Shown: piece by piece, positions 6,132-27,513 of the stretch
How positions within the stretch are numbered: position 1 is the stretch's first letter
How the letters are laid out: each line of letters starts with the position of its first letter
Source of the DNA: a virus
Taxonomy: Duplodnaviria; Heunggongvirae; Uroviricota; Caudoviricetes
Virus record (IMG/VR): IMGVR_UViG_2737471863_000004
Span: 1-49,997 of that record
Direction: 5' to 3' (one strand)
Length of the DNA stretch: 49,997 nt
Translations under genes and position numbers: made by a program
Notes under the pieces: model-generated
What the model was told of the DNA's origin: nothing
The model's database searches: none
What the model saw: the letters and a program-made list of their open reading frames with translations, nothing else

Positions 6132-6157
6132 TTATCGCGTGAGTCTTATTTTTATGA

Positions 6158-6350: not shown

Positions 6351-6413
6351 CAGAACAAGAGGTAGGGATCCAAATCCCTTCTTCTGGCGGGCAACAGTAT
6401 AGGGCACAGAACG

Positions 6414-6686: not shown

Positions 6687-7366
6687 AGTATGCGTCGGGA
6701 ATGGCCGATCTGTTCCCGGAACCTGAACACAGGATTTCAGTTTATACGGTCATAAAATTATTATTTTTCAACTGGTTATCTTCTTCATGTTTCACAAACC
6801 TTCATAAAATCACACACCTAAAATTAATTATCCATTTAATATCATAGAGTTGCGTATTCAGGCCATAGATTCGACGGACAGTAAAACTGAAAAAAAATGA
6901 ATTTCTTTTCATTCTTTTCAGTTCCTGTATCGCAGTACATCTCGAGGACTGGCACGGACTGGCGGTATCGTTTGTAAAAAATCCAGGCTGAAAATTTTTA
7001 GTGATATGAAAACCGCAGGCGGGTGCGGTGTAGTGCCGTTTTGGTCTGTCGAGCGTATATTTTCCCTTTTTCACGATTGCTGCATATCAAAACGAATGTG
7101 CAGATATCAGGCCGTGTCAAACCGTGAATCGTGGAGCCTAAATGCCCAAACTACGTTTGTAGACCTAGCTAGGGGAAGGTTTCCACATATACTGCTACCT
7201 ATCTTCCAGTCGCTGGTGAGGATCAAGGTAAGCTAACTGGTGAACAAGAAAAGTACTTTCGTATCTTGCGTACTCGTTTTTTTTGATTAGTATGTACAGG
7301 TAGTAACTGGATGGTGAGAATTCGTCATAACTTATCAAATTGCATGATGTTTATAGAGTATGAGTA

Positions 7367-8248: not shown

Positions 8249-8269
8249 TATCCTCAGGAGTTGTAAGTT

Positions 8270-9220: not shown

Positions 9221-10423
9221 TAAGCTAGCGTACCATTCCATCATTACTTGTCGATCTTTAATATATTGCGCATGATTGTAAGTACCTCGAATAGAGTTCT
9301 TATCAACATGCGCAAGCTGCATTTCAATCCAGGCACTTTCAAACCCATGCTCATGCAAGATGGTGCTCATGGTATGCCTGAAACCGTGACCCGTTAACCG
9401 ACCGTGATAACCCAGTAGTTTTATCACTTTGTTGATGCTGGCTTCGCTCATTGGTTTCCTGACGTCATTTCGGCCAGGGAAAACGAGGCTGTAATTCCCT
9501 GTTATTTCTTGCAGCTTTTTCAGGATATTGATCGCCTGAGTTGATAACGGAACCAGATGGGGGCGGCGTTTCTTCATCCGTTCTTTGGGGATCTCCCATA
9601 AGGCATTATCTAAATCAAACTCAGCCCATTCCGCTGCACGTAGTTCAATTGTTCGCACGCCTGTTAGCATCAACAGCTGCGTGGCGTATTTGGTAACTAA
9701 ACTGCCCTGATAGTTATCCAGAGCATTAACGAACTCGGGCAACTCGCTTTCAGTCAGGAACGGGAAGTGTTGGGTTTTAGGTTTGTTGAGTGCGATAGCT
9801 AAATCGGGTGCAAAATTATACTTTGCTCTACCAGTGGCAACAGCATAACGAAGCACTTCACCACAGCGGCGGCGGATCTTACTGGTTTGCTCTAGCGCAC
9901 CTCTTTTCTCTATTTTTTGCAGGACGGTTAGCAGTTCTAATGGTTCAATCTGCTCAATTGGGCGCTGGCCGATAAAAGGAAAAATATCCTTTTCCATACA
10001 ATTGAGAACCTCTTTTGCATAACCCTCTGACCAGGTGGCTTTTTTCGATGAGTGCCATTCTCTGGCCACAGACTCAAAGCTGTTCTCATGCGCGAACTGC
10101 AAAGCAATCTTATCTGCTTTTCTGGCTTCACTTGGGTTTATCCCTTTGGCTAACATCGAACGCGCTTCATCACGTTTGGTACGTGCCTGTGCCAACGACA
10201 CATCGCCATATACGCCAAAGGAAATCATCTTAGGCTTACCTGCAAAGCGATAGCGAAAACGCCAGCCTTTACTGCCCGCTGTGTCGATCAGGAGTGATAG
10301 CCCCATACCATCGTTAAGCGTATAGGGTTTGTCCTTCGGTTTTGCTCTTTTTATTTGGATGTCAGATAGCAGCATGTGTATAGAAAAAAGATCGAACTCA
10401 GTTATACACAATGTTATACGCAA
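9200..10423 (-). CDS. Tyrosine integrase, IntS/P4 family, of the satellite
   Basis: N-terminal DKPYTLNDGMGLSL arm-binding motif and C-terminal HGFRH...RGTYNHAQY catalytic motifs; clear similarity across the length to IntS at 47596..48753. The likely true start is the internal Met at about 10375. Confidence 0.9.
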   Translation of the reverse strand: MRITLCITEFDLFSIHMLLSDIQIKRAKPKDKPYTLNDGMGLSLLIDTAGSKGWRFRYRFAGKPKMISFGVYGDVSLAQARTKRDEARSMLAKGINPSEARKADKIALQFAHENSFESVAREWHSSKKATWSEGYAKEVLNCMEKDIFPFIGQRPIEQIEPLELLTVLQKIEKRGALEQTSKIRRRCGEVLRYAVATGRAKYNFAPDLAIALNKPKTQHFPFLTESELPEFVNALDNYQGSLVTKYATQLLMLTGVRTIELRAAEWAEFDLDNALWEIPKERMKKRRPHLVPLSTQAINILKKLQEITGNYSLVFPGRNDVRKPMSEASINKVIKLLGYHGRLTGHGFRHTMSTILHEHGFESAWIEMQLAHVDKNSIRGTYNHAQYIKDRQVMMEWYASLLNTTCY

Positions 10424-10534
10424 AGATGTATAGATTCCATTAGAAATAATGGTACTTTGCTGGACGAGTATAAGGAGATGATATCAGTTAAAACAGTGAG
10501 TTATGGAATTAATTGGACTTAGTGAGAAGTGTTC

Positions 10535-10550
10535 ATGGTGTCCCCTGCAG
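10535..10550. repeat. att core copy (ATGGTGTCCCCTGCAG) at the junction between the two elements
   Basis: Exact 16-bp identity to 48914..48929, the 3' end of argW plus 1 nt. It lies between torI and the satellite integrase. Confidence 0.7.
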
Positions 10551-10623
10551 ACATCTACTTGAGGCGGCAGGGGATTGATTGGAATGGTGTTTTTTAGATG
10601 TGAAAAATATTTTACCCGCTATT

Positions 10624-10824
10624 TTACCCATTGGCGCGGCTTAAGAGCTTATTTTTGAATTCACAATGGTCACGATATAACCATCTTGCTCGTCCGTGGA
10701 TAACTTTGGCTTTAGGCAGGTCGCCGGACTTAATCCGGTCATAGATGAAGGTCTTACCGAAGCCAGTATCAGCCATGATGAATTTCAAATCAACCAGTGA
10801 ATCAGGTTGTAGTTCGTGTTGCAT
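10624..10824 (-). CDS. torI: TorI-type excisionase (recombination directionality factor)
   Basis: 66 aa, MQHELQPDSLVDLKFIMADTGFGKTFIYDRIKSGDLPKAKVIHGRARW..., matching the E. coli KplE1 TorI as I recall it; located next to the att core. Confidence 0.8.
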   Translation of the reverse strand: MQHELQPDSLVDLKFIMADTGFGKTFIYDRIKSGDLPKAKVIHGRARWLYRDHCEFKNKLLSRANG

Positions 10825-10843
10825 GAGTGCTATCTCCGAATAT

Positions 10844-10859
10844 GGAATCGAACCTGCAA
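10844..10859. repeat. 16-bp argW-derived fragment (GGAATCGAACCTGCAA), not a functional tRNA
   Basis: Identical to argW 48929..48944 (T-arm region), but the flanks do not fold into a tRNA; separated from the att core by the torI gene. Confidence 0.5.
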
Positions 10860-10946
10860 ATCAGGCAATAAAAAGCCGCATTGATGCAGCAATGGTAGGT
10901 CTGGATATCTTGAGAAATGAACAGGCCTCATCGAGTGTGAGGCGGG

Positions 10947-14933: not shown

Positions 14934-15122
14934 TTATGGCGATACCAGAGAGCTTTCTGCGTGTACATGCGTCTCTGTAACTTGCTCTCCTTCACTGTGG
15001 TTGCAAGTGACATGAATATCTCCTTCGTTACCGATTAATTCTTTCATATGACGAATGAATTCTTCGTCTGACCAGTTATCTGTAAAACTCATGGACGGCC
15101 TTGTTGTTTCAAAATATCCCAA
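14934..15122 (-). CDS. Small hypothetical early-left protein
   Basis: ORF only. Confidence 0.35.
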   Translation of the reverse strand: MGYFETTRPSMSFTDNWSDEEFIRHMKELIGNEGDIHVTCNHSEGEQVTETHVHAESSLVSP

Positions 15123-15364
15123 AGCTTTTCGAGCAAGCTTTTCATTCTTGGTTGTTTAAAGTCTGCTCCGGTTAAAATATTTTTTCGTGAATGCTGTACC
15201 GATAAAATCGGGTTGAAAGGGCGAACCGATGCCGCCCCTGCAATAGCGAACTGTTGCATAGGATGCTCCTTCTGTTTGATTGCATAACGAAAACGCCTCG
15301 AGTGAAGCGTTATTGGTATGCATATAAAAAGGCCCTCACACTGGAGGGCAAAGAAGATTTCCAA
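15089..15364 (-). CDS. Small hypothetical early-left protein (likely shorter, from internal Met MQQFAIAG)
   Basis: ORF only. Confidence 0.35.
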   Translation of the reverse strand: MEIFFALQCEGLFICIPITLHSRRFRYAIKQKEHPMQQFAIAGAASVRPFNPILSVQHSRKNILTGADFKQPRMKSLLEKLWDILKQQGRP

Positions 15365-15444
15365 TAATCAGAACAAGTCGGCTCCTGTTTAGTTACGAGC
15401 GACATTGCTCCGTGTATTCACTCGTTGGAATGAATACACAGTGC

Positions 15445-15645
15445 TTATTCGCGAGCTTTGAGCATTGCGTCTGCAAACTTATATGCAGCGCTTGCTGCAT
15501 AATTAACAGCTCCATCAGAATCATTATCGATAATCGATGGATTGCTAATCATTGCTTGCATAGCCTTTGCCGCGAAGTAATCACGTAATGTCGCATCACT
15601 TGCCATTTCTGGGCGTTTGATATCTGCTTCGTAAAACTCGCACAT
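15445..15645 (-). CDS. Small hypothetical early-left protein, 66 aa
   Basis: ORF; stop adjacent to the next gene's start. Confidence 0.4.
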   Translation of the reverse strand: MCEFYEADIKRPEMASDATLRDYFAAKAMQAMISNPSIIDNDSDGAVNYAASAAYKFADAMLKARE

Positions 15646-15965
15646 TACTCACCTCCCAGAGCCTTGATGATTGCTGCAAAACCTTTATTAACAGCTCCAT
15701 ACCATTCTGGATATGTTGTCGTTGTTCTATTTTTGGATTGCTTAAGTAATAACTGAAGTGCTTCGAGAAGGTCAGGTGCTGCCGCTATTAGATTGGCATC
15801 TTCAATGCATTGAACTTCCTCACAGATTGCAATATACGAACGCCAGCCTGCGCCATTTTCAAGAGAGTCTGCCTGGATGATTTTAATCTCATCGCCATCC
15901 ATCATTATTTCCCACTTACCTTCAGTACCTTTAAATTCCATGTTAGCCTCTGTTGTTTGTGCCAA
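15645..15965 (-). CDS. Hypothetical early-left protein, 106 aa
   Basis: ORF only. Confidence 0.45.
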   Translation of the reverse strand: MAQTTEANMEFKGTEGKWEIMMDGDEIKIIQADSLENGAGWRSYIAICEEVQCIEDANLIAAAPDLLEALQLLLKQSKNRTTTTYPEWYGAVNKGFAAIIKALGGE

Positions 15966-15978
15966 AAATAAAGGCCGA

Positions 15979-16302
15979 CTATGCGGCCTTATCTACATTT
16001 CTGAACCAAACGCAGATCGGACCGTCTTCTGTATCGTGAATCGAACCGACAAACCATCCTTCTCCATCTGGCATGCTTGGCTCCCATCCACTGATGTTTG
16101 GATTCCCATCTTCAAAATACGCGTCAATTACCGTTTGATTGTTGTCGTTTTCCATTTCAACAATTGATGATTCAATGCCATGCTGCTTGCAGAAAGATCT
16201 GAACTCATCAACTGAAATTACCTCTCTATCCCCAAACAGGTTGGCGTATTCTGGGTGCGTCCAGTAGCCATCCTCGCTTCGCTCTACTACTAATGCTTCC
16301 AT
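15979..16302 (-). CDS. Hypothetical early-left protein, 107 aa, acidic
   Basis: ORF only. Confidence 0.45.
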   Translation of the reverse strand: MEALVVERSEDGYWTHPEYANLFGDREVISVDEFRSFCKQHGIESSIVEMENDNNQTVIDAYFEDGNPNISGWEPSMPDGEGWFVGSIHDTEDGPICVWFRNVDKAA

Positions 16303-16310
16303 ATCTCACC

Positions 16311-16637
16311 TCAAATAAGTGGTTTGCTGCCTAATTTCATTTTCTGGCGACCAACACAAGTCACACCCATTTCACTGCGTGGCTTGCTGTACCATGTGCG
16401 CTGATTCTTGCGCTCAATACGTTGCAGGTTGCTTTCAATCTGTTCGTGGTATTCAGCCAGCACCGTAAGGTCTATCGGATTCAGTGCGCTTTCTACTCGT
16501 GATTTCGGTTTGCGATTCAGCGAGAGAATAGGGCGGTTAACTGGTTTTGCGCTTACCCCAACCAACAGGGGATTTGCTGCTTTCCATTGAGCCTGTTTCT
16601 CTGCGCGACGTTCGCGGCGGCGTGTTTGTGCATCCAT
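16311..16637 (-). CDS. N: Antitermination protein N (lambda N-like)
   Basis: From the internal Met: MDAQTRRRERRAEKQAQWKAANPLLVGVSAKPVNRPILSLNRKPKSR... is near-identical to lambda N as recalled (includes the arginine-rich motif). Confidence 0.9.
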   Translation of the reverse strand: MDAQTRRRERRAEKQAQWKAANPLLVGVSAKPVNRPILSLNRKPKSRVESALNPIDLTVLAEYHEQIESNLQRIERKNQRTWYSKPRSEMGVTCVGRQKMKLGSKPLI

Positions 16638-16904
16638 CTGGATTCTCCTGTCAGTTAGCTTTGGTGGTGTGGTGGCTGGTAGTCTAGCTCCAGCTTGTTG
16701 AGTCTCATTCGGAGGGGTATAACCGGCACCCCAGTGATTTTCCATGCGACAACGTGCGCGTTATGGCGGCCTTATCGCCCGCGGCTCCCCATCTCGTCCA
16801 CGCTATTGCTAGCGTTGGGAGCGCTTCACCGCTCAACAGTAGGTAAGCACTTGCCAGTGACTAGCTGGCTTCACCACACCCCAAAGCCTTCTGCTTTGAA
16901 TGCT

Positions 16905-16935
16905 GCCCTTCTTCAGGGCTAAATTTTTAAGAGCC
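16905..16935 (-). promoter_or_regulatory. nutL (boxB hairpin GCCCTGAAGAAGGGC with boxA-like GGCTCTTAA) on the minus strand
   Basis: Reverse complement of the plus-strand sequence matches the lambda nutL boxB exactly and boxA with one mismatch. Confidence 0.65.
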
Positions 16936-17065
16936 TCACCTTCATGGTGGTTAGTGCGTCCTGCTGATGGCTAAATAGTACGATTTGTACTTTATCGAGT
17001 CAATACAAAATGTTCTAAATATAATTAGTTTTTTATAACGCTTTGTATTTAATGGGTTTATATTT
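16936..17065 (-). promoter_or_regulatory. Probable pL/oL region
   Basis: AT-rich interval between the cI terminator and nutL, containing the inverted repeat AGTACGATTTGTACT. Positional inference only. Confidence 0.35.
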
Positions 17066-17099
17066 TGGAAAAAGAAAACCCGACGCTAAGGTCGGGTTA
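17066..17099 (-). terminator. Intrinsic terminator downstream of cI
   Basis: Minus-strand hairpin AACCCGACC-loop-GTCGGGTT followed by TTTTCTTTTT. Confidence 0.5.
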
Positions 17100-17128
17100 T
17101 TGTTGTGTGTTTTAGAGTTGTGAGGCTG

Positions 17129-17788
17129 TTAACTAAATGTCTCTTCAGGCCACTGGCTGGCGATAACTTTCCCTACTACGGAGCAGCTATCATTGCATGG
17201 AATCATTGGATATTGCGGGTTTAGTGGCTGTAGGAACACCTGACCGCTATCCCTGATCAGTTTCTTGAAGGTAAACTCGTCACCACCAAGTCTGGCTATG
17301 CAGAAATCACCTGGCTCAACAGCCTGCTCGGGGTCAACGAGAATTAACATCCCGTCAGGAAAGCTTGGCTTCGATCCTGTTGGCGCGGTCATGGAATTAC
17401 CTTCAACTTCAAGCCAAAACGCACAATCACTGGCTTTTTTGGTTGTGCTGACCCATCTCTCCGCATCACCTTTGGTAAAGGTTCTAAGCTCAGGCGAGAA
17501 CATCCCGGCCTGAACATGAGAAAAAACAGGGTACTCATATTGTTTTTTAACGGGGGCAGATGAGTATTCGCCAACAGGTGAAAATGTACCGTCGTGGTTG
17601 AATGAGACGTTATCAATACCAAGGTATTTAAACACCACACCAATCTCGTCAAGAGATGGATGACGAGATCCGCGCAACCAGTGACCAATTCCACCCTGCG
17701 TCATACCAAGCTCTTCAGCTAACTTCTCTTGAGTTATGCCGAGCTCTTTCATTCTGGATCTAGCCAGTTCATACCATTTCATTTTCAT
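17129..17788 (-). CDS. cI: CI-type repressor with lambda-like C-terminal domain and a different N-terminal HTH domain
   Basis: C-terminal about 130 aa ([33 protein letters not shown]...[14 protein letters not shown]) near-identical to lambda cI as recalled; the N-terminal 90 aa is not lambda-like. Start taken at the internal Met MKMKWYEL. Confidence 0.9.
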
Positions 17789-17830
17789 ACCCTTATTATT
17801 ACGCTCTGTACTAAACCCATCCATGCACAA

Positions 17831-17899
17831 GATGTATTTTTTGCTTGCATTCTAAAAGTACATATCGTATTATTGTTTCATGGTTACTATGGAGGGCAT
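17831..17899. promoter_or_regulatory. Divergent cI/cro control region (oR, pR, pRM analogue)
   Basis: Candidate pR TTGCAT-N17-TATTAT upstream of cro; operators not defined. Confidence 0.4.
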
Positions 17900-18115
17900 A
17901 TGAGCAACCTACGAAAATATCGAGAGTCACTGAATATCTCTCAAACAACACTTGCTAAGGCAGTTGGATGCACACAGGGAGCTATCGGACATTGGGAATC
18001 TGGTCGTCGCTTCCCAGACCTTAAAACATGCCGTGCTCTTGTTGAGTGCCTAAACAAGTTAGGCGCAAAAGTCAGTCTTGATGACGTGTTCCCGCCGGAA
18101 CACAAAGCCGCTTAA
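17900..18115 (+). CDS. cro: Cro-like HTH repressor
   Basis: 71 aa from ATG at 17900 with GGAGGG RBS; HTH motif QTTLAKAVGCTQGAIGHWESGRR. Confidence 0.75.
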   Translation: MSNLRKYRESLNISQTTLAKAVGCTQGAIGHWESGRRFPDLKTCRALVECLNKLGAKVSLDDVFPPEHKAA

Positions 18116-18123
18116 GACATTCC

Positions 18124-18155
18124 CGCTCTTACACATCCCAGCCCTGAAAAAGGGC
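18124..18155 (+). promoter_or_regulatory. nutR (boxA CGCTCTTAC, boxB GCCCTGAAAAAGGGC)
   Basis: Matches the lambda nutR sequence as recalled; followed by a tR1-like region before cII. Confidence 0.65.
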
Positions 18156-18234
18156 ATCAAATTAAACCACACCTATGGTGTATGCATTTATTTGCATACA
18201 TTCAATCAATTGTTATCTAAGGAAATACTTACAT

Positions 18235-18528
18235 ATGGTTCGTGCAAACAAACGCAACGAGGCTCTACGAATCGAGAGTGCGTTGCTTAACAAAATCGCA
18301 ATGCTTGGAACTGAGAAGACAGCGGAAGCTGTGGGCGTTGATAAGTCGCAGATCAGCAGGTGGAAGAGGGACTGGATTCCAAAGTTCTCAATGCTGCTTG
18401 CTGTTCTTGAATGGGGCGTCGTTGACGACGACATGGCTCGATTGGCACGACAAGTTGCTTCGATTCTCACCAATAAAAAACGCCCGGCGGCAACCGAGCG
18501 TTCTGAACAAATCCAGATGGAATTTTAA
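18235..18528 (+). CDS. cII: Transcriptional activator CII
   Basis: MVRANKRNEALRIESALLNKIAMLGTEKTAEAVGVDKSQISRWKRDWIPKFSMLLAVLEWGVVDDDMARLARQV... is essentially lambda CII; ATG at 18235, internal to the track ORF. Confidence 0.95.
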   Translation: MVRANKRNEALRIESALLNKIAMLGTEKTAEAVGVDKSQISRWKRDWIPKFSMLLAVLEWGVVDDDMARLARQVASILTNKKRPAATERSEQIQMEF

Positions 18529-18690
18529 CAACATCCAACGAGGTAATTATATGCGAAAAACGCAGGAAAATAAACGCGTTAATCACCGAAAAGATGTGCT
18601 ACGTGACCAGTTTTATCAGGGGGTTAATCCAGCAATAGTTGTGCCACTGAGAGAAATACTTAACAGGTACAAAACTTCGGAGAAGTCAAA

Positions 18691-19443
18691 ATGAGCATGA
18701 ATCTTATGGCTAAGGCCATGAATATAAAGGTTGGCAACCCACTGAGAAAACTGGTTCTGATTAAACTTGCCGATAACGCCAATGATAATGGCGAATGCTG
18801 GCCTTCATATCAACATGTCGCTGACCAGTGTGAGGTGAGCAGATCGACAGTAAAAAGTCACATTAGGGCACTGGAAGAGATGGGGCTTTTGAAAAGGGAA
18901 TTCAGAAGAAAAGGAGAGCTTAACCAGTCAAACGTTTTTTATCTGACGCTGGATAATGCACAACAAATCCAACCAGAATCAGGTGGGGAAGGAGCTGCCC
19001 GGGGTGGGGCAGGAGCTGCCCCCAGAACCTATCACTCTTTTGAACCAGTCAATGAACCTAAAAACATTATGTTCGAACATGTCCGAACAGAGTGTGAAAA
19101 AACTCCTGACCGTCACGAAGAAACCGACAAGGCATTCGAGGAAATATTCTGGTGTGCAGGCATGCGGAAAGCCGGGAAGAAAAACGCAGCTTCGGCATTC
19201 AGAACACAGTTCAGGGAATGGCGTAAAACTACCAGGGGTACGGCAAGCGAGTTTGCCACGATGCTGGCAGAAGACATCGCATGCAGGAATGGTAAGCAGT
19301 TCGGATTCGACAGGTTGTTACCATCGAGCTACCTGAACGGTCAGCGCTGGAACGACGAGAAGCCAGAAATTATTCAACCACAATCCAAACCATCATCCGC
19401 AATCACCGTATCGAAAACTGGCTACGTGTTTTTCGACAGGTGA
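18691..19443 (+). CDS. Replication initiation protein (O-like, winged-helix N-terminus)
   Basis: 250 aa at the position of lambda O; N-terminal HTH-like region (YQHVADQCEVSRSTVKSHIRALEEMGLL); not lambda O itself. Confidence 0.6.
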   Translation: MSMNLMAKAMNIKVGNPLRKLVLIKLADNANDNGECWPSYQHVADQCEVSRSTVKSHIRALEEMGLLKREFRRKGELNQSNVFYLTLDNAQQIQPESGGEGAARGGAGAAPRTYHSFEPVNEPKNIMFEHVRTECEKTPDRHEETDKAFEEIFWCAGMRKAGKKNAASAFRTQFREWRKTTRGTASEFATMLAEDIACRNGKQFGFDRLLPSSYLNGQRWNDEKPEIIQPQSKPSSAITVSKTGYVFFDR

Positions 19444-19550
19444 ACCATGAAATCAAAAATCAAATCGTTACTGGTCGCTGGTTATAACCACGGCTGGTTA
19501 AGTATTTCGTTTGTCGATTTCTGGTTTAAAAATCTCAATCTGAGGGAATC

Positions 19551-21431
19551 ATGACACCAAGTGAACTTAGCGACCTGCTTTGGGCGCAGGTTGACAGGGT
19601 GGCTCCGCACCTGTTGCCAAACGGCAAGAAAGAGGGGCATGAGTGGGTTGCCGGTAACGTCAACGGTGACAAGGGAAACAGCCTTAAGGTCAACCTTAGC
19701 GGCAAGAAAAAATGGGCTGATTTCGCTGAGGGAGACGGCGGTGACATGCTTGATTTGTGGATGGCATGTCGTGGAATTAACCTGCATCAGGCTATGCAGG
19801 AAGCGAAAGCATTTCTCGGTATCAAGGATGACGATCACCATTTCGATGCCAAACGTGAGAAAAAATTCTCCAGACCTGATCGCAAGAAAATCGCCCGCTA
19901 CGTTACCAGAACAGAATCCCATCTTGAGTACCTGCAATCGCGTGGCATATCGCCAGAAATCGTAAAGCGCTACGAGGTTGTCAGCGGCAAGGTGTGGAAT
20001 GGAGAGCGAGAACTGGATGCTCTGGTGATTCCGTACAAACGCGATGGTGAGTTGTTGCAGGTAAAGCGAATCAGCACTGAGCGCCCGGACGGGAAGAAAG
20101 TCATTATGGCAGAAGGTGATTGCGAACCTTGTCTGTTCGGATGGCAGGCTCTGGACGCTGGCGTGAGGGCGGTTGTACTTTGCGAAGGCGAAATTGATTG
20201 TATGAGCTATGCGCAATACGGCATCTCGGCGTTATCCGTGCCGTTTGGTGGCGGGAAAGGCGCTAAGCAACAGTGGATTGAGTTTGAGTATCACAACCTC
20301 GACAGGTTTGAGGAAATATTCATCTCGATGGATGTTGATGATGTTGGTCGTGAAGCCGCAAGGGAAATCGCAAGCCGACTCGGTGAACATCGTTGCCGTC
20401 TTGTTACTCTGCCGTACAAAGACATCAACGAATGCCTGATGAACGGTGTTACCGAGGATGAAATCTGGCAGTACATCGGCACGGCATCCTACTTCGATCC
20501 TGAAGAACTCTACAGCGCGCGAGAGTTTTACCAGGACACTATCAACGCTTTCTACGGCAAGCAGCAGTATCTGTTTAATCCACCGTGGGAATCTCTGGCA
20601 GATAAATTCCAGTTCCGTGAGGCAGAGTTGACGCTGGTCAATGGTGTGAACGGTCACGGAAAAACGGAGGTTGTCGGGCATATGGCACTTGAGGCAATGC
20701 GTCAGGGTGTGAAGACGTGCATCGCGTCACTTGAGCTGAAGCCTGGTATTCTCCTTAAGCGCCTTACCCGTCAGGCGACGTGCTGCAAGATGCCGCCAGT
20801 GCTGGAAATTGACTCTGCATTTAAATTTTATGACGAAAGACTTTGGGTGTTTGGCCTGACCGGAACGGCGAAAGCCGACAGGCTGATCGAAATATTCGAC
20901 TACGCTCGCCGCCGATACGGGATCCAGTTATTCATCATCGACAGCCTGATGAAATGCGGCATAGGTGACGATGACTATAACGGGCAGAAAGCATTTGTTG
21001 ACTCGATTTGTGACTTCAAAAACAAAACAAACTCCCACGTCATTCTCGTTACTCACTCCAGAAAAGGAGACAGCGAAGAAAAACCAACCGGGAAAATGGA
21101 CGTAAAAGGCTCTGGAGCGATAACAGACCTGACAGACAACCTTTTCATCATCTGGCGTAACAAGGCTCGCGAGAGAGCGTTACAGAGAGTTCAGAGTGGT
21201 GAAAAGATGTCAGAGAAGGACGAACAGCTACTGGCATCTCCGGCATCTGTTTTGATGCTTGAAAAACAACGTAACGGCGAAGGTTGGGAAGGTGGTGTCC
21301 CGTTGTTCCTTGACGAACAATCGCACCAGTTCCTGCAACTTGAATCAGGATCGCCATATAGCTACATCGCCAATATGCCGAAATCGGAATATGACGAGGC
21401 GTGGCGACAGGAAAACGTGACGGAGTATTAA
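19551..21431 (+). CDS. Bifunctional Toprim primase / DnaB-like helicase
   Basis: 626 aa; Toprim-like acidic motif (VVLCEGEIDCMSY), Walker A GVNGHGKTE and Walker B LFIIDSL. Confidence 0.75.
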   Translation: MTPSELSDLLWAQVDRVAPHLLPNGKKEGHEWVAGNVNGDKGNSLKVNLSGKKKWADFAEGDGGDMLDLWMACRGINLHQAMQEAKAFLGIKDDDHHFDAKREKKFSRPDRKKIARYVTRTESHLEYLQSRGISPEIVKRYEVVSGKVWNGERELDALVIPYKRDGELLQVKRISTERPDGKKVIMAEGDCEPCLFGWQALDAGVRAVVLCEGEIDCMSYAQYGISALSVPFGGGKGAKQQWIEFEYHNLDRFEEIFISMDVDDVGREAAREIASRLGEHRCRLVTLPYKDINECLMNGVTEDEIWQYIGTASYFDPEELYSAREFYQDTINAFYGKQQYLFNPPWESLADKFQFREAELTLVNGVNGHGKTEVVGHMALEAMRQGVKTCIASLELKPGILLKRLTRQATCCKMPPVLEIDSAFKFYDERLWVFGLTGTAKADRLIEIFDYARRRYGIQLFIIDSLMKCGIGDDDYNGQKAFVDSICDFKNKTNSHVILVTHSRKGDSEEKPTGKMDVKGSGAITDLTDNLFIIWRNKARERALQRVQSGEKMSEKDEQLLASPASVLMLEKQRNGEGWEGGVPLFLDEQSHQFLQLESGSPYSYIANMPKSEYDEAWRQENVTEY

Positions 21432-21701
21432 ATGAATAAAAAACAATTAGCCATTCTCGAAAAAGCATGGGATGCACAAATATCATACGCTTTGAAAGAA
21501 CAGGCACTACCAATAATCCAGACCAAATCGAAAATAGCCAGGCAGTTATGCGATGACGGATTCCTGAACGAAGTTGAGATTACGCGCCAGATGGTAACGT
21601 TCAAAGGGTATGAGATAAATCATCATGGTATAGCGGCGTATTGCTCCCATCTTCCTGATGACGTTGACATTGATGAAATGGAAAGGGAGATGAAGCAATG
21701 A
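21432..21701 (+). CDS. Hypothetical protein, 89 aa
   Basis: ORF immediately after the helicase stop. Confidence 0.45.
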   Translation: MNKKQLAILEKAWDAQISYALKEQALPIIQTKSKIARQLCDDGFLNEVEITRQMVTFKGYEINHHGIAAYCSHLPDDVDIDEMEREMKQ

Positions 21702-21774
21702 CCATCTACATCACTGAGCTAATAACAGGCCTGCTGGTAATCGCAGGCCTTTTTATTTGGGGGAGAGGGAAGTC

Positions 21775-22215
21775 ATGAAAAAACTAACCTTTGAAATTCG
21801 ATCTCCAGCACATCAGCAAAACGCTATTCACGCAGTACAGCAAATCCTTCCAGACCCAACCAAACCAATCGTAGTAACCATTCAGGAACGCAACCGCAGC
21901 TTAGACCAAAACAGGAAGCTATGGGCCTGCTTAGGTGACGTCTCTCGTCAGGTTGAATGGCATGGTCGCTGGCTGGATGCAGAAAGCTGGAAGTGTGTGT
22001 TTACCGCAGCATTAAAGCAGCAGGATGTTGTTCCTAACCTTGCCGGGAATGGCTTTGTGGTAATAGGCCAGTCAACCAGCAGGATGCGTGTAAGCGAATT
22101 TGCGGAGCTATTAGAGCTTATACAGGCATTCGGTACAGAGCGTGGCGTTAAGTGGTCAGACGAAGCGCGACTGGCTCTGGAGTGGAAAGCGAGATGGGGA
22201 GATCGGGCTGCATGA
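21775..22215 (+). CDS. ninB: NinB (Orf-family recombination mediator)
   Basis: MKKLTFEIRSPAHQQNAIHAVQQILPDPTKPIVVTIQERNRSLDQNRKLW... is near-identical to lambda NinB as recalled; start internal to the track ORF. Confidence 0.9.
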   Translation: MKKLTFEIRSPAHQQNAIHAVQQILPDPTKPIVVTIQERNRSLDQNRKLWACLGDVSRQVEWHGRWLDAESWKCVFTAALKQQDVVPNLAGNGFVVIGQSTSRMRVSEFAELLELIQAFGTERGVKWSDEARLALEWKARWGDRAA

Positions 22216-22739
22216 CTATCAAATCAAATACGCCAGCACACGACAAGGACTGCTGGCAAACGCCGCTTTGGCTTTTTGATGCACTGGATATTGAGTTTGG
22301 ATTCTGGCTGGATTCGGCAGCGAGCGACAAAAATGCTCTGTGTGCTCACTGGCTAACTGAGGCCGACGACGCGCTCAATTCTGAGTGGGTAAGCCACGGT
22401 GCAATCTGGAATAACCCACCGTACAGCAATATCAGGCCGTGGGTGGAAAAAGCCGCTGAGCAGTGCATACAACAGCGACAGACGGTAGTTATGCTTGTGC
22501 CAGAGGATATGTCAGTCGGATGGTTCAGCAAGGCTCTGGAGAGTGTCGACGAAGTTCGCATTATCACTGATGGACGGATTAATTTTATCGAACCATCGAC
22601 AGGGCTGGAGAAGAAGGGAAACAGCAAAGGCTCCATGCTGCTGATTTGGCGACCGTTCATCAGTCCTCGACGGATGTTTACTACCGTATCCAAAGCGGCA
22701 TTGATGGCGATCGGGCAGGGCGTCAGGAGGGCGGCATGA
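22212..22739 (+). CDS. Phage DNA N6-adenine methyltransferase (Dam-like)
   Basis: [26 protein letters not shown]... with catalytic NPPY motif (IWNNPPYSN); ATGA overlap with the ninB stop. Confidence 0.75.
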
Positions 22740-22912
22740 GGCGACAGCGACGAAGTTTCACCGACATCATCTGCGAAAACTGCAAATACCTTCCAACGAA
22801 ACGCTCCAGAAATAAACGCAAGCCAATCCCAAAAGAATCTGACGTAAAAACCTTCAACTACACGGCTCACCTGTGGGATATCCGGTGGCTAAGACATCGT
22901 GCGAGGAAATGA
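22736..22912 (+). CDS. ninE: NinE
   Basis: [52 protein letters not shown] matches lambda NinE as recalled. Confidence 0.85.
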
Positions 22913-22914
22913 CA

Positions 22915-23274
22915 ATGGATTATTCACAGTTAAGTGATTTTGAAATTAACGTGGCGGTATTCGAAGCCATTCATAACGGATCACCGGATTACAAAGAAGG
23001 TGAGAATGGCGATATGGTGTTTGTCTCATTTGAGGGAGGCATTGTAAACGGAGACGCAGTTGAAGTAGAAGTTGAGCGCGGATCCTTTAACCCATGCGCA
23101 AACCCAGCAGACGCATGGCCGATTATTGAAAAATACAGGATTAGCATTATCAATCTCGATGAAGACGAGTGGGGTGCACGCGGTGTGGCCTACTGTAAAT
23201 CTAAGCGAGCTATACATGAAAATCCCCTCCGCGCCGCCATGATTGTCTTTCTCATGATGCAGAGAATCCAATAA
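22915..23274 (+). CDS. NinX-like protein (DUF2591-type), tentative
   Basis: [19 protein letters not shown]... with GAGGAAA RBS; the family name is recalled, not verified. Confidence 0.45.
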
Positions 23275-23450
23275 TGCTTAGCCCATCCCAATCCATTCAA
23301 TACCAGAAAGAAAGCGTCGAGCGGGCTTTAACGTGCGCTAACTGCGGTCAGAAGCTGCATGTGCTGGAAGTTCACGTGTGCTCCGATTGCTGCGCAGAAC
23401 TGATGAGCGATCCGAATAGCTCAATGTACGAGGAAGAAGACGATGAATGA
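23274..23450 (+). CDS. ninF: NinF
   Basis: 58-aa ORF absent from the track; [36 protein letters not shown]... matches lambda NinF as recalled. Confidence 0.75.
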   Translation: MLSPSQSIQYQKESVERALTCANCGQKLHVLEVHVCSDCCAELMSDPNSSMYEEEDDE

Positions 23451-24165
23451 GTTAATGAATGGCAATGCCATCAAAATGACAAGCATTGAAATCGCTGAAT
23501 TGGTGGGTAAGCGTCATGACAATGTGAAACGTACCATCGAAACGCTGGCTAAAAATGGTGTTATCCGGCTTCCTCAGATTGAGGTTTCCGAAAGAATCAA
23601 TAACTTAGGGTTCAATGTTCAGTACGAGCATTACGTCTTCGAAGGCGAACAAGGTAAGCGAGACAGTATTGTCGTTGTTGCCCAGTTGTCGCCAGAGTTC
23701 ACGGCTCGCCTTGTTGACCGCTGGCGAGAGCTTGAAGAATCTGCGGTTAATATCCCCAAAACGTTACCGGAAGCGTTGCGCCTTGCTGCTGATCTTGCTG
23801 AGCAGAAAATGCAACTGGAAAACCAGCTCGCAATTTCCGCACCTAAAGTTGAGTTTGCCGATCGAGTTGGCGAGGCCAGCGGAATTTTGATTGGAAACTA
23901 TGCAAAGGTTGTTGGAATTGGTCCAAACAAACTGTTTGCGTGGATGCGCGATCACAAAATCCTTATTGCTTCAGGTTCCCGGCGCAATGTGCCAATGCAG
24001 GAATATATGGAGCGCGGCTATTTCACAGTGAAAGAAACAGCGGTCAACACAAATCACGGAATACAGATATCGTTCACCACAAAAATCACCGGGCGTGGTC
24101 AACAGTGGCTGACCAGAAAGCTGCTCGATAACAGAATGCTGAAAGTAACAGGGGAGGCTGCTTAA
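23443..24165 (+). CDS. Rha-family / KilAC-domain antirepressor-like regulator
   Basis: 240 aa; N-terminal Rha-like segment (IKMTSIEIAELVGKRHDNVKR) and C-terminal KilAC-like segment. Confidence 0.65.
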   Translation: MNELMNGNAIKMTSIEIAELVGKRHDNVKRTIETLAKNGVIRLPQIEVSERINNLGFNVQYEHYVFEGEQGKRDSIVVVAQLSPEFTARLVDRWRELEESAVNIPKTLPEALRLAADLAEQKMQLENQLAISAPKVEFADRVGEASGILIGNYAKVVGIGPNKLFAWMRDHKILIASGSRRNVPMQEYMERGYFTVKETAVNTNHGIQISFTTKITGRGQQWLTRKLLDNRMLKVTGEAA

Positions 24166-24455
24166 TGGCTAACCTACGCAAAGAAGCGCGCGGCAGAGAA
24201 TGCCAGGTACGTATTTACGGCGTATGCAATGGCAATCCTGAAACTACAGTTCTGGCACATTACCGGATGGCTGGAATTTGCGGAACTGGAATGAAGCCTG
24301 ACGACCTGATCGGCGCATGGGCTTGTAGCGCGTGTCACGATGAAATCGACCGACGTACAATGATTCTCGACAACAAAGACGCCAGACTTTACCACCTCGA
24401 AGGCGTGATCAGGACGCAGGCGATACTACTGAAGGAGGGGAAGATTAAGTCATGA
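24165..24455 (+). CDS. ybcO: DUF1364 / YbcO-like protein
   Basis: MANLRKEARGRECQVRIYGVCNGNPETTVLAHYR...CSACHDEIDRR resembles E. coli YbcO as recalled. Confidence 0.7.
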   Translation: MANLRKEARGRECQVRIYGVCNGNPETTVLAHYRMAGICGTGMKPDDLIGAWACSACHDEIDRRTMILDNKDARLYHLEGVIRTQAILLKEGKIKS

Positions 24456-24814
24456 ACGAATATCAGTTTGTGCTTCCGTACCCACCGTCGCTGAATACCT
24501 ACTGGCGAAGAAGGGGAAGCCAATACTACATCAGCGATAAAGGCCAGAAATACCGAAAAGATGTACAGCAAATAATCCGCCAACTCAAGTTAGACATTTT
24601 CACCAAATCACGACTCCGCATCAAAGTCATCGCAGACGTTCCAGACTCCCGCCGCCGCGACCTCGACAACATCCTGAAAGGTTTACTCGACTCCCTTATC
24701 CACGCCGGATTTGCGGAAGACGACGAGCAATTCGATGACATTCGCGTAATTCGTGGCGTGAAAGTACCAGGCGGAAGGCTTGGAATAAAAATCACCGAAC
24801 TGGAGAACGCATGA
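24452..24814 (+). CDS. rusA: RusA-type Holliday junction resolvase
   Basis: 120 aa; pattern PSLNTYWRR...RRRDLDN...GRL matches RusA. Confidence 0.85.
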   Translation: MNEYQFVLPYPPSLNTYWRRRGSQYYISDKGQKYRKDVQQIIRQLKLDIFTKSRLRIKVIADVPDSRRRDLDNILKGLLDSLIHAGFAEDDEQFDDIRVIRGVKVPGGRLGIKITELENA

Positions 24815-24999
24815 ACGCCACAATTCAAACGATACCAGAGCTTCTTATCCAGACACGAGGCAATCAGACCGAAGTGGCGAGGATGCTTTCCTGCGCAAGA
24901 GGAACGGTGCTCAAGTACAACCGAGACAGCAAAGGCGAGCGTCACGTAATAGTTAACGGCGTCCTGATGGTCAAACAGGGCAAGAGGGGAAGACCATGA
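24811..24999 (+). CDS. ninH: NinH
   Basis: TIPELLIQTRGNQTEVARMLSCARGTVLKY resembles lambda NinH. Confidence 0.75.
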   Translation: MNATIQTIPELLIQTRGNQTEVARMLSCARGTVLKYNRDSKGERHVIVNGVLMVKQGKRGRP

Positions 25000-25619
25000 G
25001 ACTCGAAAGTGTAGCTAAATTTCATTCGCCAAAAAGCCCGATGATGAGCGACTCACCACGGGCCACGGCTTCTGACTCTCTTTCCGGTACTGATGTGATG
25101 GCTGCTATGGGGATGGCGCAATCACAAGCCGGATTCGGAATGGCTGCATTCTGCGGTAAGCATGAACTCAGCCAGAACGACAAACAAAAGGCTATCAACT
25201 ATCTGATGCAATTTGCACACAAGGTATCGGGGAAATACCGTGGTGTGGCAAAGCTCGAAGGAAATACTAAGGCAAAGGTACTGCAAGTGCTCGCAACATT
25301 CGCTTATGCGGATTATTGCCGTAGTGCCGCGACGCCGGGGGCAAGATGCAGAGATTGCCACGGTACAGGCCGTGCGGTTGATATAGCAAAAACAGAGCAG
25401 TGGGGGAGAGTTGTTGAGAAAGAGTGCGGAAGATGCAAAGGCGTAGGCTATTCCAGGATGCCAGCAAGCGCCGCATATCGCGCTGTAACGATGCTAATCC
25501 CAAACCTTACCCAACCCACCTGGTCACGCACTGTTAAGCCGCTGTATGACGCTCTGGTGGTGCAATGCCACAAAGAAGAGTCAATCGCAGACAACATTTT
25601 GAATGCGGTCACACGTTAG
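24996..25619 (+). CDS. Q: Late antiterminator Q (lambda Q)
   Basis: 207 aa, MRLESVAKFHSPKSPMMSDSPRATASDSLSGTD..., essentially lambda Q as recalled. Confidence 0.95.
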   Translation: MRLESVAKFHSPKSPMMSDSPRATASDSLSGTDVMAAMGMAQSQAGFGMAAFCGKHELSQNDKQKAINYLMQFAHKVSGKYRGVAKLEGNTKAKVLQVLATFAYADYCRSAATPGARCRDCHGTGRAVDIAKTEQWGRVVEKECGRCKGVGYSRMPASAAYRAVTMLIPNLTQPTWSRTVKPLYDALVVQCHKEESIADNILNAVTR

Positions 25620-25662
25620 CGGCATGATTGCCACGGATGGCAACATCTTTACGGCATGATAT

Positions 25663-25690
25663 TGACTTTTTGAATAAAGTTGGGTAAATT
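25663..25690 (+). promoter_or_regulatory. Late promoter pR' (-35 TTGACT, -10 TAAATT) with qut region
   Basis: Near-identical to the lambda pR' region as recalled. Confidence 0.7.
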
Positions 25691-25831
25691 TGACCCAACG
25701 ATGGGTTAATTCGCTCGTTGTGGTAGTGAGATGAAAAGAGGCGGCGCTTACTACCGATTCCGCCTAGTTGGTCACTTCGACGTATCGTCTGGAACTCCAA
25801 CCATCGCAGGCAGAGAGGTCTGCAAAATGCA

Positions 25832-25890
25832 ATCCCGAAACAGTTCGCAGGTAATAGTTAGAGCCTGCATAACGGTTTCGGGATTTTTTA
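25832..25890 (+). terminator. tR' intrinsic terminator (end of the 6S leader RNA)
   Basis: Long hairpin ATCCCGAAAC...GTTTCGGGAT followed by TTTTTT. Confidence 0.7.
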
Positions 25891-26295
25891 TATCTGCACA
25901 ACAGGTAAGAGCATTGAGTCGATAATCGTGAAGAGTCGGCGAGCCTGGTTAGCCAGTGCTCTTTCCGTTGTGCTGAATTAAGCGAATACCGGAAGCAGAA
26001 CCGGATCACCAAATGCGTACAGGCGTCATCGCCGCCCAGCAACAGCACAACCCAAACTGAGCCGTAGCCACTGGCTATCCTGAACTCATCAGTGATAGTT
26101 ACGCTGCGGCCTTCTATACATGACCTTCGTGAAAGCGGGTGGCAAGAGGCTGCGCTAACAACCTCCTGCCGTTTTGCCCGTGCATATCGGTCACGAACAA
26201 ATCTGATTACTAAACACAGTAGCCTGGATTTGTTCTATCAGTAATCGACCTTATTCCTAATTAAATAGAGCAAATCCCCTTATTGGGGGTAAGAC

Positions 26296-26619
26296 ATGAA
26301 GATGCCAGAAAAACATGACCTGTTAGCCGCCATTCTCGCGGCAAAGGAACAAGGCATCGGGGCAATCCTTGCGTTTGCAATGGCGTACCTTCGCGGCAGA
26401 TATAATGGCGGTGCGTTTACAAAAACAGTAATCGACGCAACGATGTGCGCCATTATCGCCTGGTTCATTCGTGACCTTCTCGACCTCGCCGGACTAAGTA
26501 GCAATCTCGCTTATATAACGAGCGTGTTCATCGGCTACATCGGTACTGACTCGATTGGTTCGCTTATCAAACGCTTCGCTGCTAAAAAAGCCGGAGTAGA
26601 AGATGGTGGAAATCAATAA
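26296..26619 (+). CDS. S: Holin S (lambda S105/S107)
   Basis: [39 protein letters not shown]... is lambda S with a dual start (MKM). Confidence 0.95.
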
Positions 26620-27079
26620 TCAACGTAAGGCGTTCCTCGATATGCTGGCGTGGTCAGAGGGAACTGATAACGGACGTCAGAAAACCAGAAATCATGGTTA
26701 TGACGTTATTGTCGGTGGTGAACTCTTCACTGATTACTCCGATCACCCTCGCAAACTTGTCACGCTAAATCCAAAACTCAAATCAACAGCAGCCGGGCGC
26801 TACCAGCTTCTTTCCCGTTGGTGGGATTCCTATCGTAAGCAGCTTGGCCTGAAAGATTTCTCTCCGAAAAGCCAGGACGCTGTGGCACTGCAACAGATTA
26901 AAGAGCGTGGCGCTTTACCGATGATTGATCGCGGTGATATTCGTCAGGCAATCGACCGTTGCAGCAATATCTGGGCTTCACTGCCGGGCGCTGGTTATGG
27001 TCAGTTCGAGCATAAGGCTGACAGCCTGATTGCAAAATTCAAAGAAGCAGGCGGAACGGTCAGAGAGATTGAGGTATGA
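26603..27079 (+). CDS. R: Endolysin R (lytic transglycosylase)
   Basis: [39 protein letters not shown]... is lambda R. Confidence 0.95.
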
Positions 27080-27513
27080 GCAGAGTAACCGCGATTATCT
27101 CCGCTCTGGTTATCTGCATCATCGTTTGCCTGTCATGGGCTGTTAATCATTACCGTGATAACGCCATTACCTACAAAACCCAGCGCGATAAAGCCACGTA
27201 CATCATCGCTGACATGCAGAAGCGTCAACGTGATGTAGCAGAACTCGACGCCAGATACACAAAGGAGCTTGCTGATGCTAACGCGACTATCGAAAGTCTC
27301 CGTGCTGATGTTTCTGCTGGTCGTAAGCGCCTGCAAGTCGCCGCCACCTGTGCAAAGTCAACGACCGGAGCCAGCAGCATGGGCGATGGAGAAAGCCCAA
27401 GACTTACAGCAGATGCTGAACTCAATTATTACCGTCTCCGAAGTGGAATCGACAGGATAACCGCGCAGGTTAACTACCTGCAGGAGTACATCAGGACGCA
27501 ATGCCTGAAATAA
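27076..27513 (+). CDS. Rz: Spanin Rz (i-spanin)
   Basis: N-terminal TM segment plus coiled coil; lambda Rz-like. Confidence 0.85.
27308..27460 (+). CDS. Rz1: Spanin Rz1 (o-spanin lipoprotein) embedded in the +1 frame of Rz
   Basis: Embedded ORF with lipobox LVVSAC and a Pro-rich mature part; start chosen at the internal Met of track ORF 27269..27460. Confidence 0.6.

Follow-up and report, generated by a model that had tools for sequence, protein, structure and literature searches.

Which replication module sits between the lambda-like cII and NinB genes of this prophage, how could it start DNA synthesis, and is its junction with the flanking genes anything out of the ordinary? The window, i.e. 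the whole stretch of 49,997 nucleotides analysed here, had been described in an initial annotation as carrying lambda-like N, cII, nut, NinB, Q and lysis functions, with an HTH initiator and a 626-aa Toprim/DnaB-like fusion in the O/P position and sharp joints at about 18530 and 21700. Alignment with lambda (blastn against NC_001416) bears out the flanks at identities of 93.2-99.0%: N is 93.2% identical, the nutL region 96.8%, the stretch from nutR to cII (18122-18524) 98.8%, NinB (21698-22215) 99.0% and the stretch from Q to Rz (24986-27324) 95.1%. The label of a lambda-like control region holds for these segments and fails for cro and the N-terminal part of cI, which lie outside the cassette and are non-lambda; cI matches lambda in 17135-17539 only (92.8%). 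The same comparison measures the joints at 18524/18525, where lambda homology stops 4 nt 5' of the cII stop, and at 21697/21698, where the conserved ninA/tR2 block begins and the homology returns. The initiator and the fusion are found where they had been placed, and Pfam agrees with both. They occupy the span 18691-21431 that had been assigned to the module, but the cassette is wider (18525-21697) and consists of five tightly packed genes, including ORFs of 47, 35 and 89 aa. None of the five is similar to lambda O, P or ren. Within the early right operon, the cassette is bounded by cII/t-oop and ninA/tR2-NinB; its gene content, joints, domain architecture, folds and linkage patterns are reported here as directly observed.

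18477..18504, minus strand: oop-type terminator stem-loop (terminator scan: 12-pair stem and T run), within the lambda-homologous 3' end of cII
18525..18558, plus strand: 34-nt linker with the RBS and ATG of the first cassette gene
18551..18694, plus strand: 47-aa ORF, whose stop overlaps the initiator start (ATGA)
18691..19443, plus strand: predicted replication initiator, 250 aa (Pfam HTH_36, E 5e-14; PHROG replication-initiation families)
19447..19554, plus strand: 35-aa ORF (MKSKIKSLLVAGYNHGWLSISFVDFWFKNLNLRES), read from the sequence, whose stop overlaps the helicase-primase start
19551..21431, plus strand: predicted bifunctional primase-helicase of the T7 gp4/Twinkle type, 626 aa (Toprim_2, 3e-12; AAA_25/DnaB_C)
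21432..21701, plus strand: 89-aa ORF in the 'ren' position (phrog_2239, E 3.6e-63)
21698..21773, plus strand: ninA/tR2 block forming the right joint, with the tR2 terminator stem-loop at 21727-21750 (terminator scan)

Both joints coincide with standard conserved blocks that are used by lambda, P22, Sf6, epsilon34 and phi24B. The left one includes the oop-terminator block, which is kept in lambda, phi24B and epsilon34, and is followed by a linker common to phages with other replication modules (100% matches in CUS-3, HF4s, JEP4 and Kapi1). On the right, the ninA/tR2 block is near-invariant in lambda, P22, Sf6, epsilon34, phi24B, GB089 and the window, and the sequence 5' of it differs in each. 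The Sf6 record has 'boundary sequences' marked at the sites that correspond to the joints, the ninA/tR2 block being bsq6. L096, a sister prophage in the same site of the chromosome, is homologous to the window up to 18558, diverges beyond, and has a module of the P22 type between these same flanks. An Rfam scan of 15000-27000 at the gathering threshold matched no curated RNA family, oop included, and a promoter scan of 18000-22300 returned sites not above shuffled controls, with no convincing oop promoter.

P22 and Sf6 can be ruled out as sources of the module, as neither has DNA similarity to the window inside the cassette. Furthermore, no single phage colinear with the window across both joints was found in the collections searched, since the best coverage is just 94%; this closest record, the E. 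coli GB089 prophage, is without 21436-21696. The phage phi24B spans the right joint, but its cII differs upstream of 18466 and its helicase gene carries an intein (Hint and LAGLIDADG) after Walker A, resulting in a 'P' protein of 968 aa. Taken singly, the joints and the parts all occur in known phages. The data support the initial reading that a non-lambda replication module separates cII from NinB, both of them lambda-like. The joint exists, but as an instance of routine, textbook lambdoid mosaicism it is ordinary for the lambda-like phage group.

The cassette itself is already known. It is the ES18/epsilon34 gp49-53 type, which in Stx phages (phi24B, Min27, Stx2a_F403) goes by the name 'Eru5', and it is present in Sf101 and mEp043 too. 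Reportedly, its record in the literature goes back to the ES18 genome paper of 2005. The cassette also appears in the epsilon34 genome paper of 2008, which names the corresponding region the ES18 replication region (PMC2629481), and the Eru5 region, comprising an HTH_36 protein and a primase, was catalogued in Stx phages in 2022 in a paper which says that nothing is known of Eru phage replication proteins (PMC8951638). In the literature searched, we found no experimental study of replication proteins of this type. Like the window, ES18 (gp59-gp62) and epsilon34 (gp49-gp53) have a small ORF, an initiator, a 35-aa ORF, a 626-aa Toprim helicase-primase and ninA/NinB, and the DNA of epsilon34 is 87.9% identical over 19059-21439. 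Unlike the window, with its HTH_36 domain and GTGGGGCAGGAGCTGCCC iterons, both phages have a lambda-O N-domain and lambda-type iterons. The Eru5 phages share with the window the N-domain, iteron type, C-domain, helicase-primase and 89-aa ORF, at 96-99.6% over 18466-21770, and Stx2a_F403, the reference phage of Eru5, reaches 99.6% over 18525-19058; the Stx-converting phage phi24B differs in having 3 iterons and another nin region. A match to the cassette occurs in 2,285 of 5,426 complete E. coli genomes, and the four cassette proteins that were looked up are all present as exact sequences in public databases. Altogether, we consider it likely that the stretch 18525-21697 forms a replication cassette complete in itself, of the ES18/epsilon34/'Eru5' type, in the O/P/ren slot of a P22-like, lambda-regulated E. 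coli prophage.

What would direct this cassette to an origin? The initiator comprises an N-terminal winged-HTH (HTH_36), an iteron-encoded linker and a C-terminal domain (aa 122-250), and the iterons lie in its gene a little 5' of the sequence that encodes the C-domain:

18983..19021, plus strand: candidate origin within the initiator gene, two 18-nt iterons, GTGGGGAAGGAGCTGCCC and GTGGGGCAGGAGCTGCCC, at a spacing of 21 nt
19054..19440, plus strand: coding region of the initiator C-terminal domain, with an internal mosaic joint at 19058/19059

The protein stands outside the Lambda O family: BLASTP detects no similarity to lambda O, and the domain found is HTH_36 and not Phage_rep_O (PF04492), which the Sf101 and epsilon34 initiators do match. 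In Sf101, 720R6, mEp043, ES18 and epsilon34, the match to the window does not begin before 19059, and the C-domain, for which there is no Pfam family, is 94% identical to aa 154-282 of epsilon34 gp50, a protein whose N-domain is 91% lambda O. Sf101 combines a C-domain of this type with a third N-domain, of the Phage_rep_O family. In total, the C-domain type of the window is joined to at least 5 different N-domains, that of lambda O included, each with its own iterons, and the repeats of the window, Sf101, lambda, Erwinia and Paenalcaligenes types all occupy the same position in the gene. In 85 of 86 related loci, C-domain, 35-aa ORF and helicase-primase come in this order, a trio also present in the window, and the cII and NinB alleles of these loci vary. 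Judged from the sequences, the initiator is modular, with the HTH_36 N-domain and the in-gene iterons forming one swappable unit, a detail that is new from the present analysis; its C-domain is probably specific for the helicase-primase, a contact suggested by co-inheritance alone. When the C-domain was used in a homologue search, most of the proteins returned were partial and near-identical, with little diversity. With the whole initiator, a PDB sequence search gave marginal HTH regulators only (E >= 0.27), and the AF2 model, built on a 12-sequence alignment, was poor (pLDDT 47, pTM 0.30).

In public annotation, the initiator is a 'helix-turn-helix domain-containing protein' or a 'transcriptional regulator', and its NCBIfam matches, weak ones only, are to GntR-type regulators. 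It could thus be a transcription regulator whose in-gene repeats are unstable coding repeats (GGAGAAR) without a role in replication, and the number of repeats, from 1 to 6 among relatives, is as expected of slippage-prone coding repeats. Yet in epsilon34, ES18 and Leclercia this same C-domain is joined in-frame to the origin-binding domain of lambda O, together with lambda iterons, and in Sf101 it is fused to Phage_rep_O. The five unrelated repeat types at the same place change together with the N-domain, the strongest PHROG matches are replication-initiation families, and the gene lies in the O slot, linked to the helicase. We regard a purely regulatory protein as highly improbable and treat the 250-aa product as a putative replication initiator.

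The iteron motif occurs in exactly 2 adjacent copies in the whole window, compared to 0.01 expected. The second iteron has 7-nt inverted arms (GGGGCAG/CTGCCCC), the first has a mismatch in one inverted arm, and the sequence downstream is only moderately A+T-rich. The repeats may fall short of a whole origin, since the window has just these two, one of them mismatched, and some relatives a single one. One could go further and see in the cassette of this prophage a decaying remnant whose crippled origin no longer supports replication: many relatives have 3-6 iterons and lambda has 4, the mismatch would fit, and in lambda-type Stx phages extra iterons are needed for efficient replication (PMC7466680). 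This is opposed by the five ORFs, which are intact and 98-100% identical to many other loci, by the exact helicase-primase sequence on 596 contigs, by 250-aa initiator alleles in E. coli, E. albertii and Salmonella, and by the frequency of two-iteron alleles (9 of the 37 loci counted). Decay hence appears quite unlikely to us, and we proceed from a cassette that would still support replication.

The 626-aa protein is composed of a cysteine-less zinc-binding-domain fold, a DnaG-type RNA-polymerase domain with the Toprim acidic residues and an SF4 (DnaB-like) helicase domain. Its match to phrog_239 (1.5e-171), as well as the iteron pair against its expectation, is far above chance. In its primase half, the fold is that of T7 gp4, Twinkle and DnaG and the catalytic residues are invariant, and the motifs EGEID, DxD, KDxNE, Walker A GHGKT, Walker B D464 and H3 His502 are common to T7 gp4, Twinkle and the window protein. 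All SF4 motifs (H1, H1a, H2, H3 and H4) are present, with GHGKT, E395, D464, H502 and GSGA aligning with T7, except that a lysine replaces the T7 arginine finger Arg522 (R522). Identity to T7 gp4 is ~28%, and the N-terminus lacks a Cys4 zinc-binding domain: all four T7 gp4 zinc ligands are replaced, the zinc-finger ligands needed for template recognition in T7 gp4 and DnaG are missing, and no conserved cysteine column exists among 70 relatives (36-59% identity to the query). From the sequence, we predict both helicase and primase activity.

The replaced zinc ligands are also consistent with a protein that is a replicative helicase only, with a primase domain inactive as in metazoan Twinkle and with host DnaG priming the lagging strand. 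The best structural match is human Twinkle, and P22 gp12 provides a precedent of a helicase that works with DnaG primase (cited in PMC8022706). Moreover, in a distant relative, Paenalcaligenes L015, the protein paired with this same initiator C-domain is a helicase only, which means that some contexts can do without a primase half. However, E212, D263 and D291 are invariant in the 70 relatives, D261 is found in 69 of them, R131 and K172 of the RNA-polymerase domain are kept too, and the N-domain, though devoid of cysteines, shows strong conservation of its own (G35, G39, G42, S44, W55, D57, F58, G64 and D65). Such conservation of Toprim residues, basic residues and N-domain argues for selection on an active primase. 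Zinc-less Toprim primases exist, e.g. RP4 TraC and P4 alpha. Loss of priming is, in our judgment, unlikely, and a bifunctional primase-helicase is the reading that we carry forward.

Among the small ORFs, the 47-aa one matches phrog_1913 (E 5e-21), whose 'tail protein' label is likely a mislabel; it is analogous to P22 orf48, which occupies the equivalent position, and is present at 96-98% in every complete window-type locus. The 35-aa ORF is a homologue of ES18 gp60 and epsilon34 gp51 and is annotated in epsilon34 and 720R6. The 89-aa ORF is an optional accessory of the cassette, present in phi24B and missing in GB089 and many IMG/VR loci; we rejected it as a Ren analogue or a homologue of gp53, the ORF after the epsilon34 helicase, as it is similar to neither lambda Ren nor gp53. 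None of the three matches a loader family in Pfam, PHROGs or NCBIfam, and no dedicated loader gene adjoins the initiator as in a lambda P/DnaC-type module.

We infer the following function and mechanism for the cassette. Rightward transcription from pR, anti-terminated by N, would run through cII into the five genes, some of them with stop/start overlaps, and end at tR2. The winged-HTH of the initiator would bind the two iterons inside its own gene, as lambda O binds ori-lambda, and the C-terminal domain would recruit the hexameric primase-helicase that the phage itself encodes. A loader of the lambda-P or DnaC type would not be used, and host DnaB would not be captured, nor would this be needed because the module encodes its own helicase and primase. 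The primase-helicase would then unwind DNA and prime via its Toprim domain, with host DNA polymerase III extending the primers. As origin, initiator and helicase travel together, the cassette would be exchangeable as a whole, by homologous recombination at the oop terminator (left) and at ninA/tR2 (right), while the N-domain and iterons, as the origin-specificity half, could be exchanged separately at the linker.

This mechanism shares elements with three known systems. Lambda O/P/ori-lambda has the same genomic slot and regulation and, between the DNA-binding and partner-specific domains encoded by the initiator gene, iterons that are each an inverted repeat as in the window; the window differs in its lack of O similarity, of Phage_rep_O and of a P-type loader, and in having its own helicase and primase. 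P22 gene 18/gene 12 and Sf6 gp43/gp44 likewise combine an initiator with a phage DnaB-family helicase in this slot, with an orf48-like small ORF upstream and the same ninA/tR2 bound, but their helicases are without a primase domain. T7 gp4 resembles the window protein in its domains, whereas the T7 origin is transcription-primed and the window protein would act downstream of an iteron-binding initiator. We also put forward, as a tentative and rather doubtful extension, that the C-domain of an origin-bound initiator, with its conserved tail SAITVSKTGYVFFDR, and perhaps the 35-aa micro-protein place the gp4-like primase-helicase on DNA loader-free, via an undescribed loading mode, with template recognition by the zinc-less zinc-binding-domain fold.

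In summary, prophages of E. coli and Salmonella, Shiga-toxin phages among them, carry few replication modules more often than this cassette; in Shiga-toxin phages, replication drives toxin dose. The comparative picture is that of one putatively helicase-recruiting C-domain, at least five interchangeable origin-binding domains with their iteron sets, and a conserved 35-aa ORF, together with a primase whose zinc-binding-domain fold has no cysteines but which is otherwise intact. This picture yields concrete constructs for tests.

Blastn against lambda (NC_001416) returned zero matches for window 18525-21697, and the joints of the replication cassette therefore lie at 18524/18525, 4 nt upstream of the cII stop, and at 21697/21698, close to the boundaries of about 18530 and 21700 proposed in the initial annotation. 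The flanks are lambda-like, as had also been proposed, with 93.2% identity in the N region, 96.8% in the nutL region, 98.8% from nutR to cII (18122-18524), 99.0% in NinB (21698-22215) and 95.1% from Q to Rz (24986-27324); their ORFs match Phage_CII (1.8e-48), NinB (1.1e-54), an S24/HTH repressor and lambda N in Pfam. The immunity region (17129-18121) is chimeric: within cI, similarity to lambda is confined to the C-terminal part (17135-17539, 92.8%), and the N-terminal DNA-binding part of cI and cro are non-lambda, with a 99.3% match to phage 720R6.

An HTH initiator and a 626-aa Toprim/DnaB-like fusion had been placed in the O/P position. ORFs and Pfam assignments bear out both, but the gap holds five tightly packed genes, not two.

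Genes of the replication cassette
18551-18694, + strand: 47-aa ORF, phrog_1913, analogue of P22 orf48; stop overlaps the initiator ATG
18691-19443, + strand: initiator, 250 aa; Pfam HTH_36, E 5e-14
19447-19554, + strand: 35-aa ORF (orf35); stop overlaps the primase-helicase ATG
19551-21431, + strand: primase-helicase, 626 aa; Pfam Toprim_2 (3e-12) and AAA_25/DnaB_C
21432-21701, + strand: 89-aa ORF, phrog_2239, function unassigned

The 47-, 35- and 89-aa ORFs matched no helicase-loader family in Pfam, PHROGs or NCBIfam. Homology of the 89-aa ORF to lambda Ren or epsilon34 gp53 was ruled out, as it is unrelated to either. The arms of a 20-nt inverted repeat (18606-18625 and 18736-18755, 90% complementary) close a predicted long-range RNA stem (18595-18765, MFE -51.6 kcal/mol, z-score -3.83) that encloses the 3' end of the 47-aa ORF and the start codon of the initiator and could control initiator translation. 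A free-standing 164-aa ORF, absent from the window, lies between orf35 and the helicase-primase gene (window 19551) in locus L060 (3992-4486) and likewise in L023, L063, L079 and L083; judged by neighbouring-gene annotations, it is probably an HNH/NUMOD4-type homing endonuclease.

Both joints recur in other phages. On the left, the joint directly follows an oop-type terminator in the cII 3' end (18477-18504, minus strand); beyond the joint comes a short shared linker with a ribosome-binding site and ATG, and phages with other replication modules match these 34 nt (18525-18558) at 100%. On the right, a block of about 75 nt comprising the ninA ORF and the tR2 stem-loop (21727-21750) is near-invariant in an alignment of lambda, P22, Sf6, epsilon34, phi24B, the E. 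coli prophage GB089 and the window, and the sequence immediately upstream differs in all seven. At places corresponding to both joints, the Sf6 record carries annotated 'boundary sequences' (bsq5, bsq6). P22 and Sf6 match the flanks only and not the module. The clearest demonstration of a module swap between these standard joints is a sister prophage at the same chromosomal site (E. coli NZ_OZ040950), which is 99.8% identical over window 1-10879, is homologous over 16342-18558 and again from 21698, and holds a P22-type 'replication protein plus DnaB-type helicase' between these flanks. No record colinear across both joints was found in the phage records and E. coli genomes searched, although this agrees with the earlier reading only trivially: the best, GB089, reaches 94% coverage and lacks 21436-21696, and phi24B spans the right joint but diverges to the left of 18466, and its helicase gene contains an intein.

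Window 1-10879, whose counterpart in NZ_OZ040950 lies near dsdC, contains a set of P4-like satellite genes immediately next to the int/xis end of the P22-like prophage. The set includes a P2-family major capsid protein and Icd-like, DUF927, ogr/Delta zinc-finger and sce7725/sce7726 family proteins.

Satellite and adjoining prophage genes
about 1-9200: satellite genes
about 9199-10374: integrase
about 10623-10823: TorI-like excisionase

Altogether, the cassette is an ordinary, already catalogued mosaic module, and the initial annotation read it correctly. Megablast against 50,697 phage records gave matches in 433, including the Stx phages phi24B, Min27 and Stx2a_F403 as well as Sf101, mEp043, epsilon34, g341c and ES18, and 2,285 of 5,426 complete E. 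coli genomes contain matches. Epsilon34 shares the gene order (gp49-gp53), which its genome paper identifies with the replication region of ES18 (PMC2629481). Public databases contain each of the four cassette proteins looked up as an exact sequence; that of the helicase-primase occurs on 596 contigs. In the Stx-phage literature the 'HTH_36 protein plus primase' pair is replication type Eru5 (PMC8951638), whose reference, Stx2a_F403, shares 99.6% identity with window 18525-19058. The same paper states that there is no knowledge of the mode of action of Eru-type replication proteins, and the literature searched yielded no experimental study of this module type.

The initiator is itself modular. 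Matches to Sf101, 720R6, mEp043, ES18 and epsilon34 start at 19059, inside its gene, and in protein alignments the C-terminal half is identical from about K124. The HTH_36 N-domain is common to the window, phi24B and GB089, whereas Sf101 and 720R6 carry a Phage_rep_O N-domain and in epsilon34 the N-domain is the origin-binding domain of lambda O itself (91% identity over O residues 19-157); similarity between the window initiator and lambda O is undetectable. In epsilon34 gp50 (residue 155) the lambda-O-like part stops at O residue 157, nt 39156. A misc_recomb site is given in the lambda record at 39157^39158, and this domain-swap joint may fall on a recombination point mapped earlier. Every N-domain type has its own direct repeats, always in one position shortly before the part of the gene that encodes the C-domain.

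Direct repeats in the initiator genes
Window type: GTGGGGCAGGAGCTGCCC; 18983-19000 and 19004-19021, the only copies in the window
Sf101: TGTCACCAAAACGGTGACA
Leclercia locus: lambda iterons
Erwinia locus: TTAGCGGAACCTGCTAA
Paenalcaligenes locus: 24-nt repeat

The two copies in the window compare with 0.01 expected by chance, and the second contains 7-nt inverted arms. Among window-type loci (L016-L051), whose initiator genes are otherwise near-identical, copy number ranges from 1 to 6, with 2 common and a single iteron in some complete loci; each copy alters the protein linker by 7-8 aa. Iteron number is likewise variable in lambda-type Stx origins (PMC7466680).

The C-domain travels with the helicase. 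Across 86 C-domain-encoding loci (80 IMG/VR contigs and six genomes of other genera), 85 have the order C-domain, orf35, helicase-primase, with variation in the N-domain and in the cII and NinB alleles. Only the most distant locus departs from this order, that of Paenalcaligenes niemegkensis (L015, 3021-5040; C-domain 36% identical), where no orf35 match was detected and the C-domain is paired with a 114-aa ORF and a 318-aa helicase-only protein devoid of a primase domain. This pairing points to the helicase half as the partner of the C-domain. In that locus the initiator is also missing the conserved C-terminal tail SAITVSKTGYVFFDR of enterobacterial versions; since the tail is absent where the primase domain is absent, it may contact the primase half. 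From these sequence comparisons, we infer that the C-domain would recruit the phage's own helicase and that, as in lambda O, the N-domain would read the origin while the C-domain selects the replication partner.

In a phmmer search of PDB sequences, the primase-helicase matches T7 gp4 (2.7e-23) and Twinkle (6.5e-14). Alignment with gp4 shows EGEID, DxD, KDxNE, Walker A (GHGKT), the H1a Glu, the Walker B Asp and the H3 His to be kept, whereas the arginine finger R522 (DLRGSGA) is lysine K519 (DVKGSGA, 21103-21111), as in the family consensus. With the primase half as query, HMMER run in full against 1.84 billion representatives gave 414 clusters at E <= 1e-30. Among 70 aligned relatives (36-59% identity to the query), E212, D263, D291, R131 and K172 never vary and D261 is kept in 69; the residues G35, G39, G42, S44, W55, D57, F58, G64 and D65 form a near-invariant N-terminal motif, and no conserved cysteine column occurs. 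The AlphaFold2 model built from this alignment is confident (pLDDT 94.4, pTM 0.90). The protein thus has the complete architecture of gp4, including a zinc-binding-domain fold predicted to be incapable of binding zinc. Conservation of the catalytic residues speaks for a working primase; a helicase-only role with priming by host DnaG is a less likely alternative.

In phi24B (L005, 5116-8022) the helicase-primase gene is split in-frame directly after Walker A (window 20661/20662) by an intein of about 342 aa with Hint and LAGLIDADG domains, giving a 'P' protein of 968 aa. The gene is split at the same place in L035, L038, L040, L042 and L051, and the window copy is intein-free.

With the sequence, fold, joints and linkage of the cassette established here, we infer binding, recruitment and enzymatic activities in a mechanism that would most likely comprise four steps: pR transcription would express the cassette, the initiator would bind the in-gene iterons, the C-domain would bring in the self-encoded hexameric primase-helicase with no P- or DnaC-type loader, and host polymerase would carry out synthesis. 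There is a small chance that this represents an undescribed, loader-free route of helicase loading together with zinc-less recognition of primase templates.
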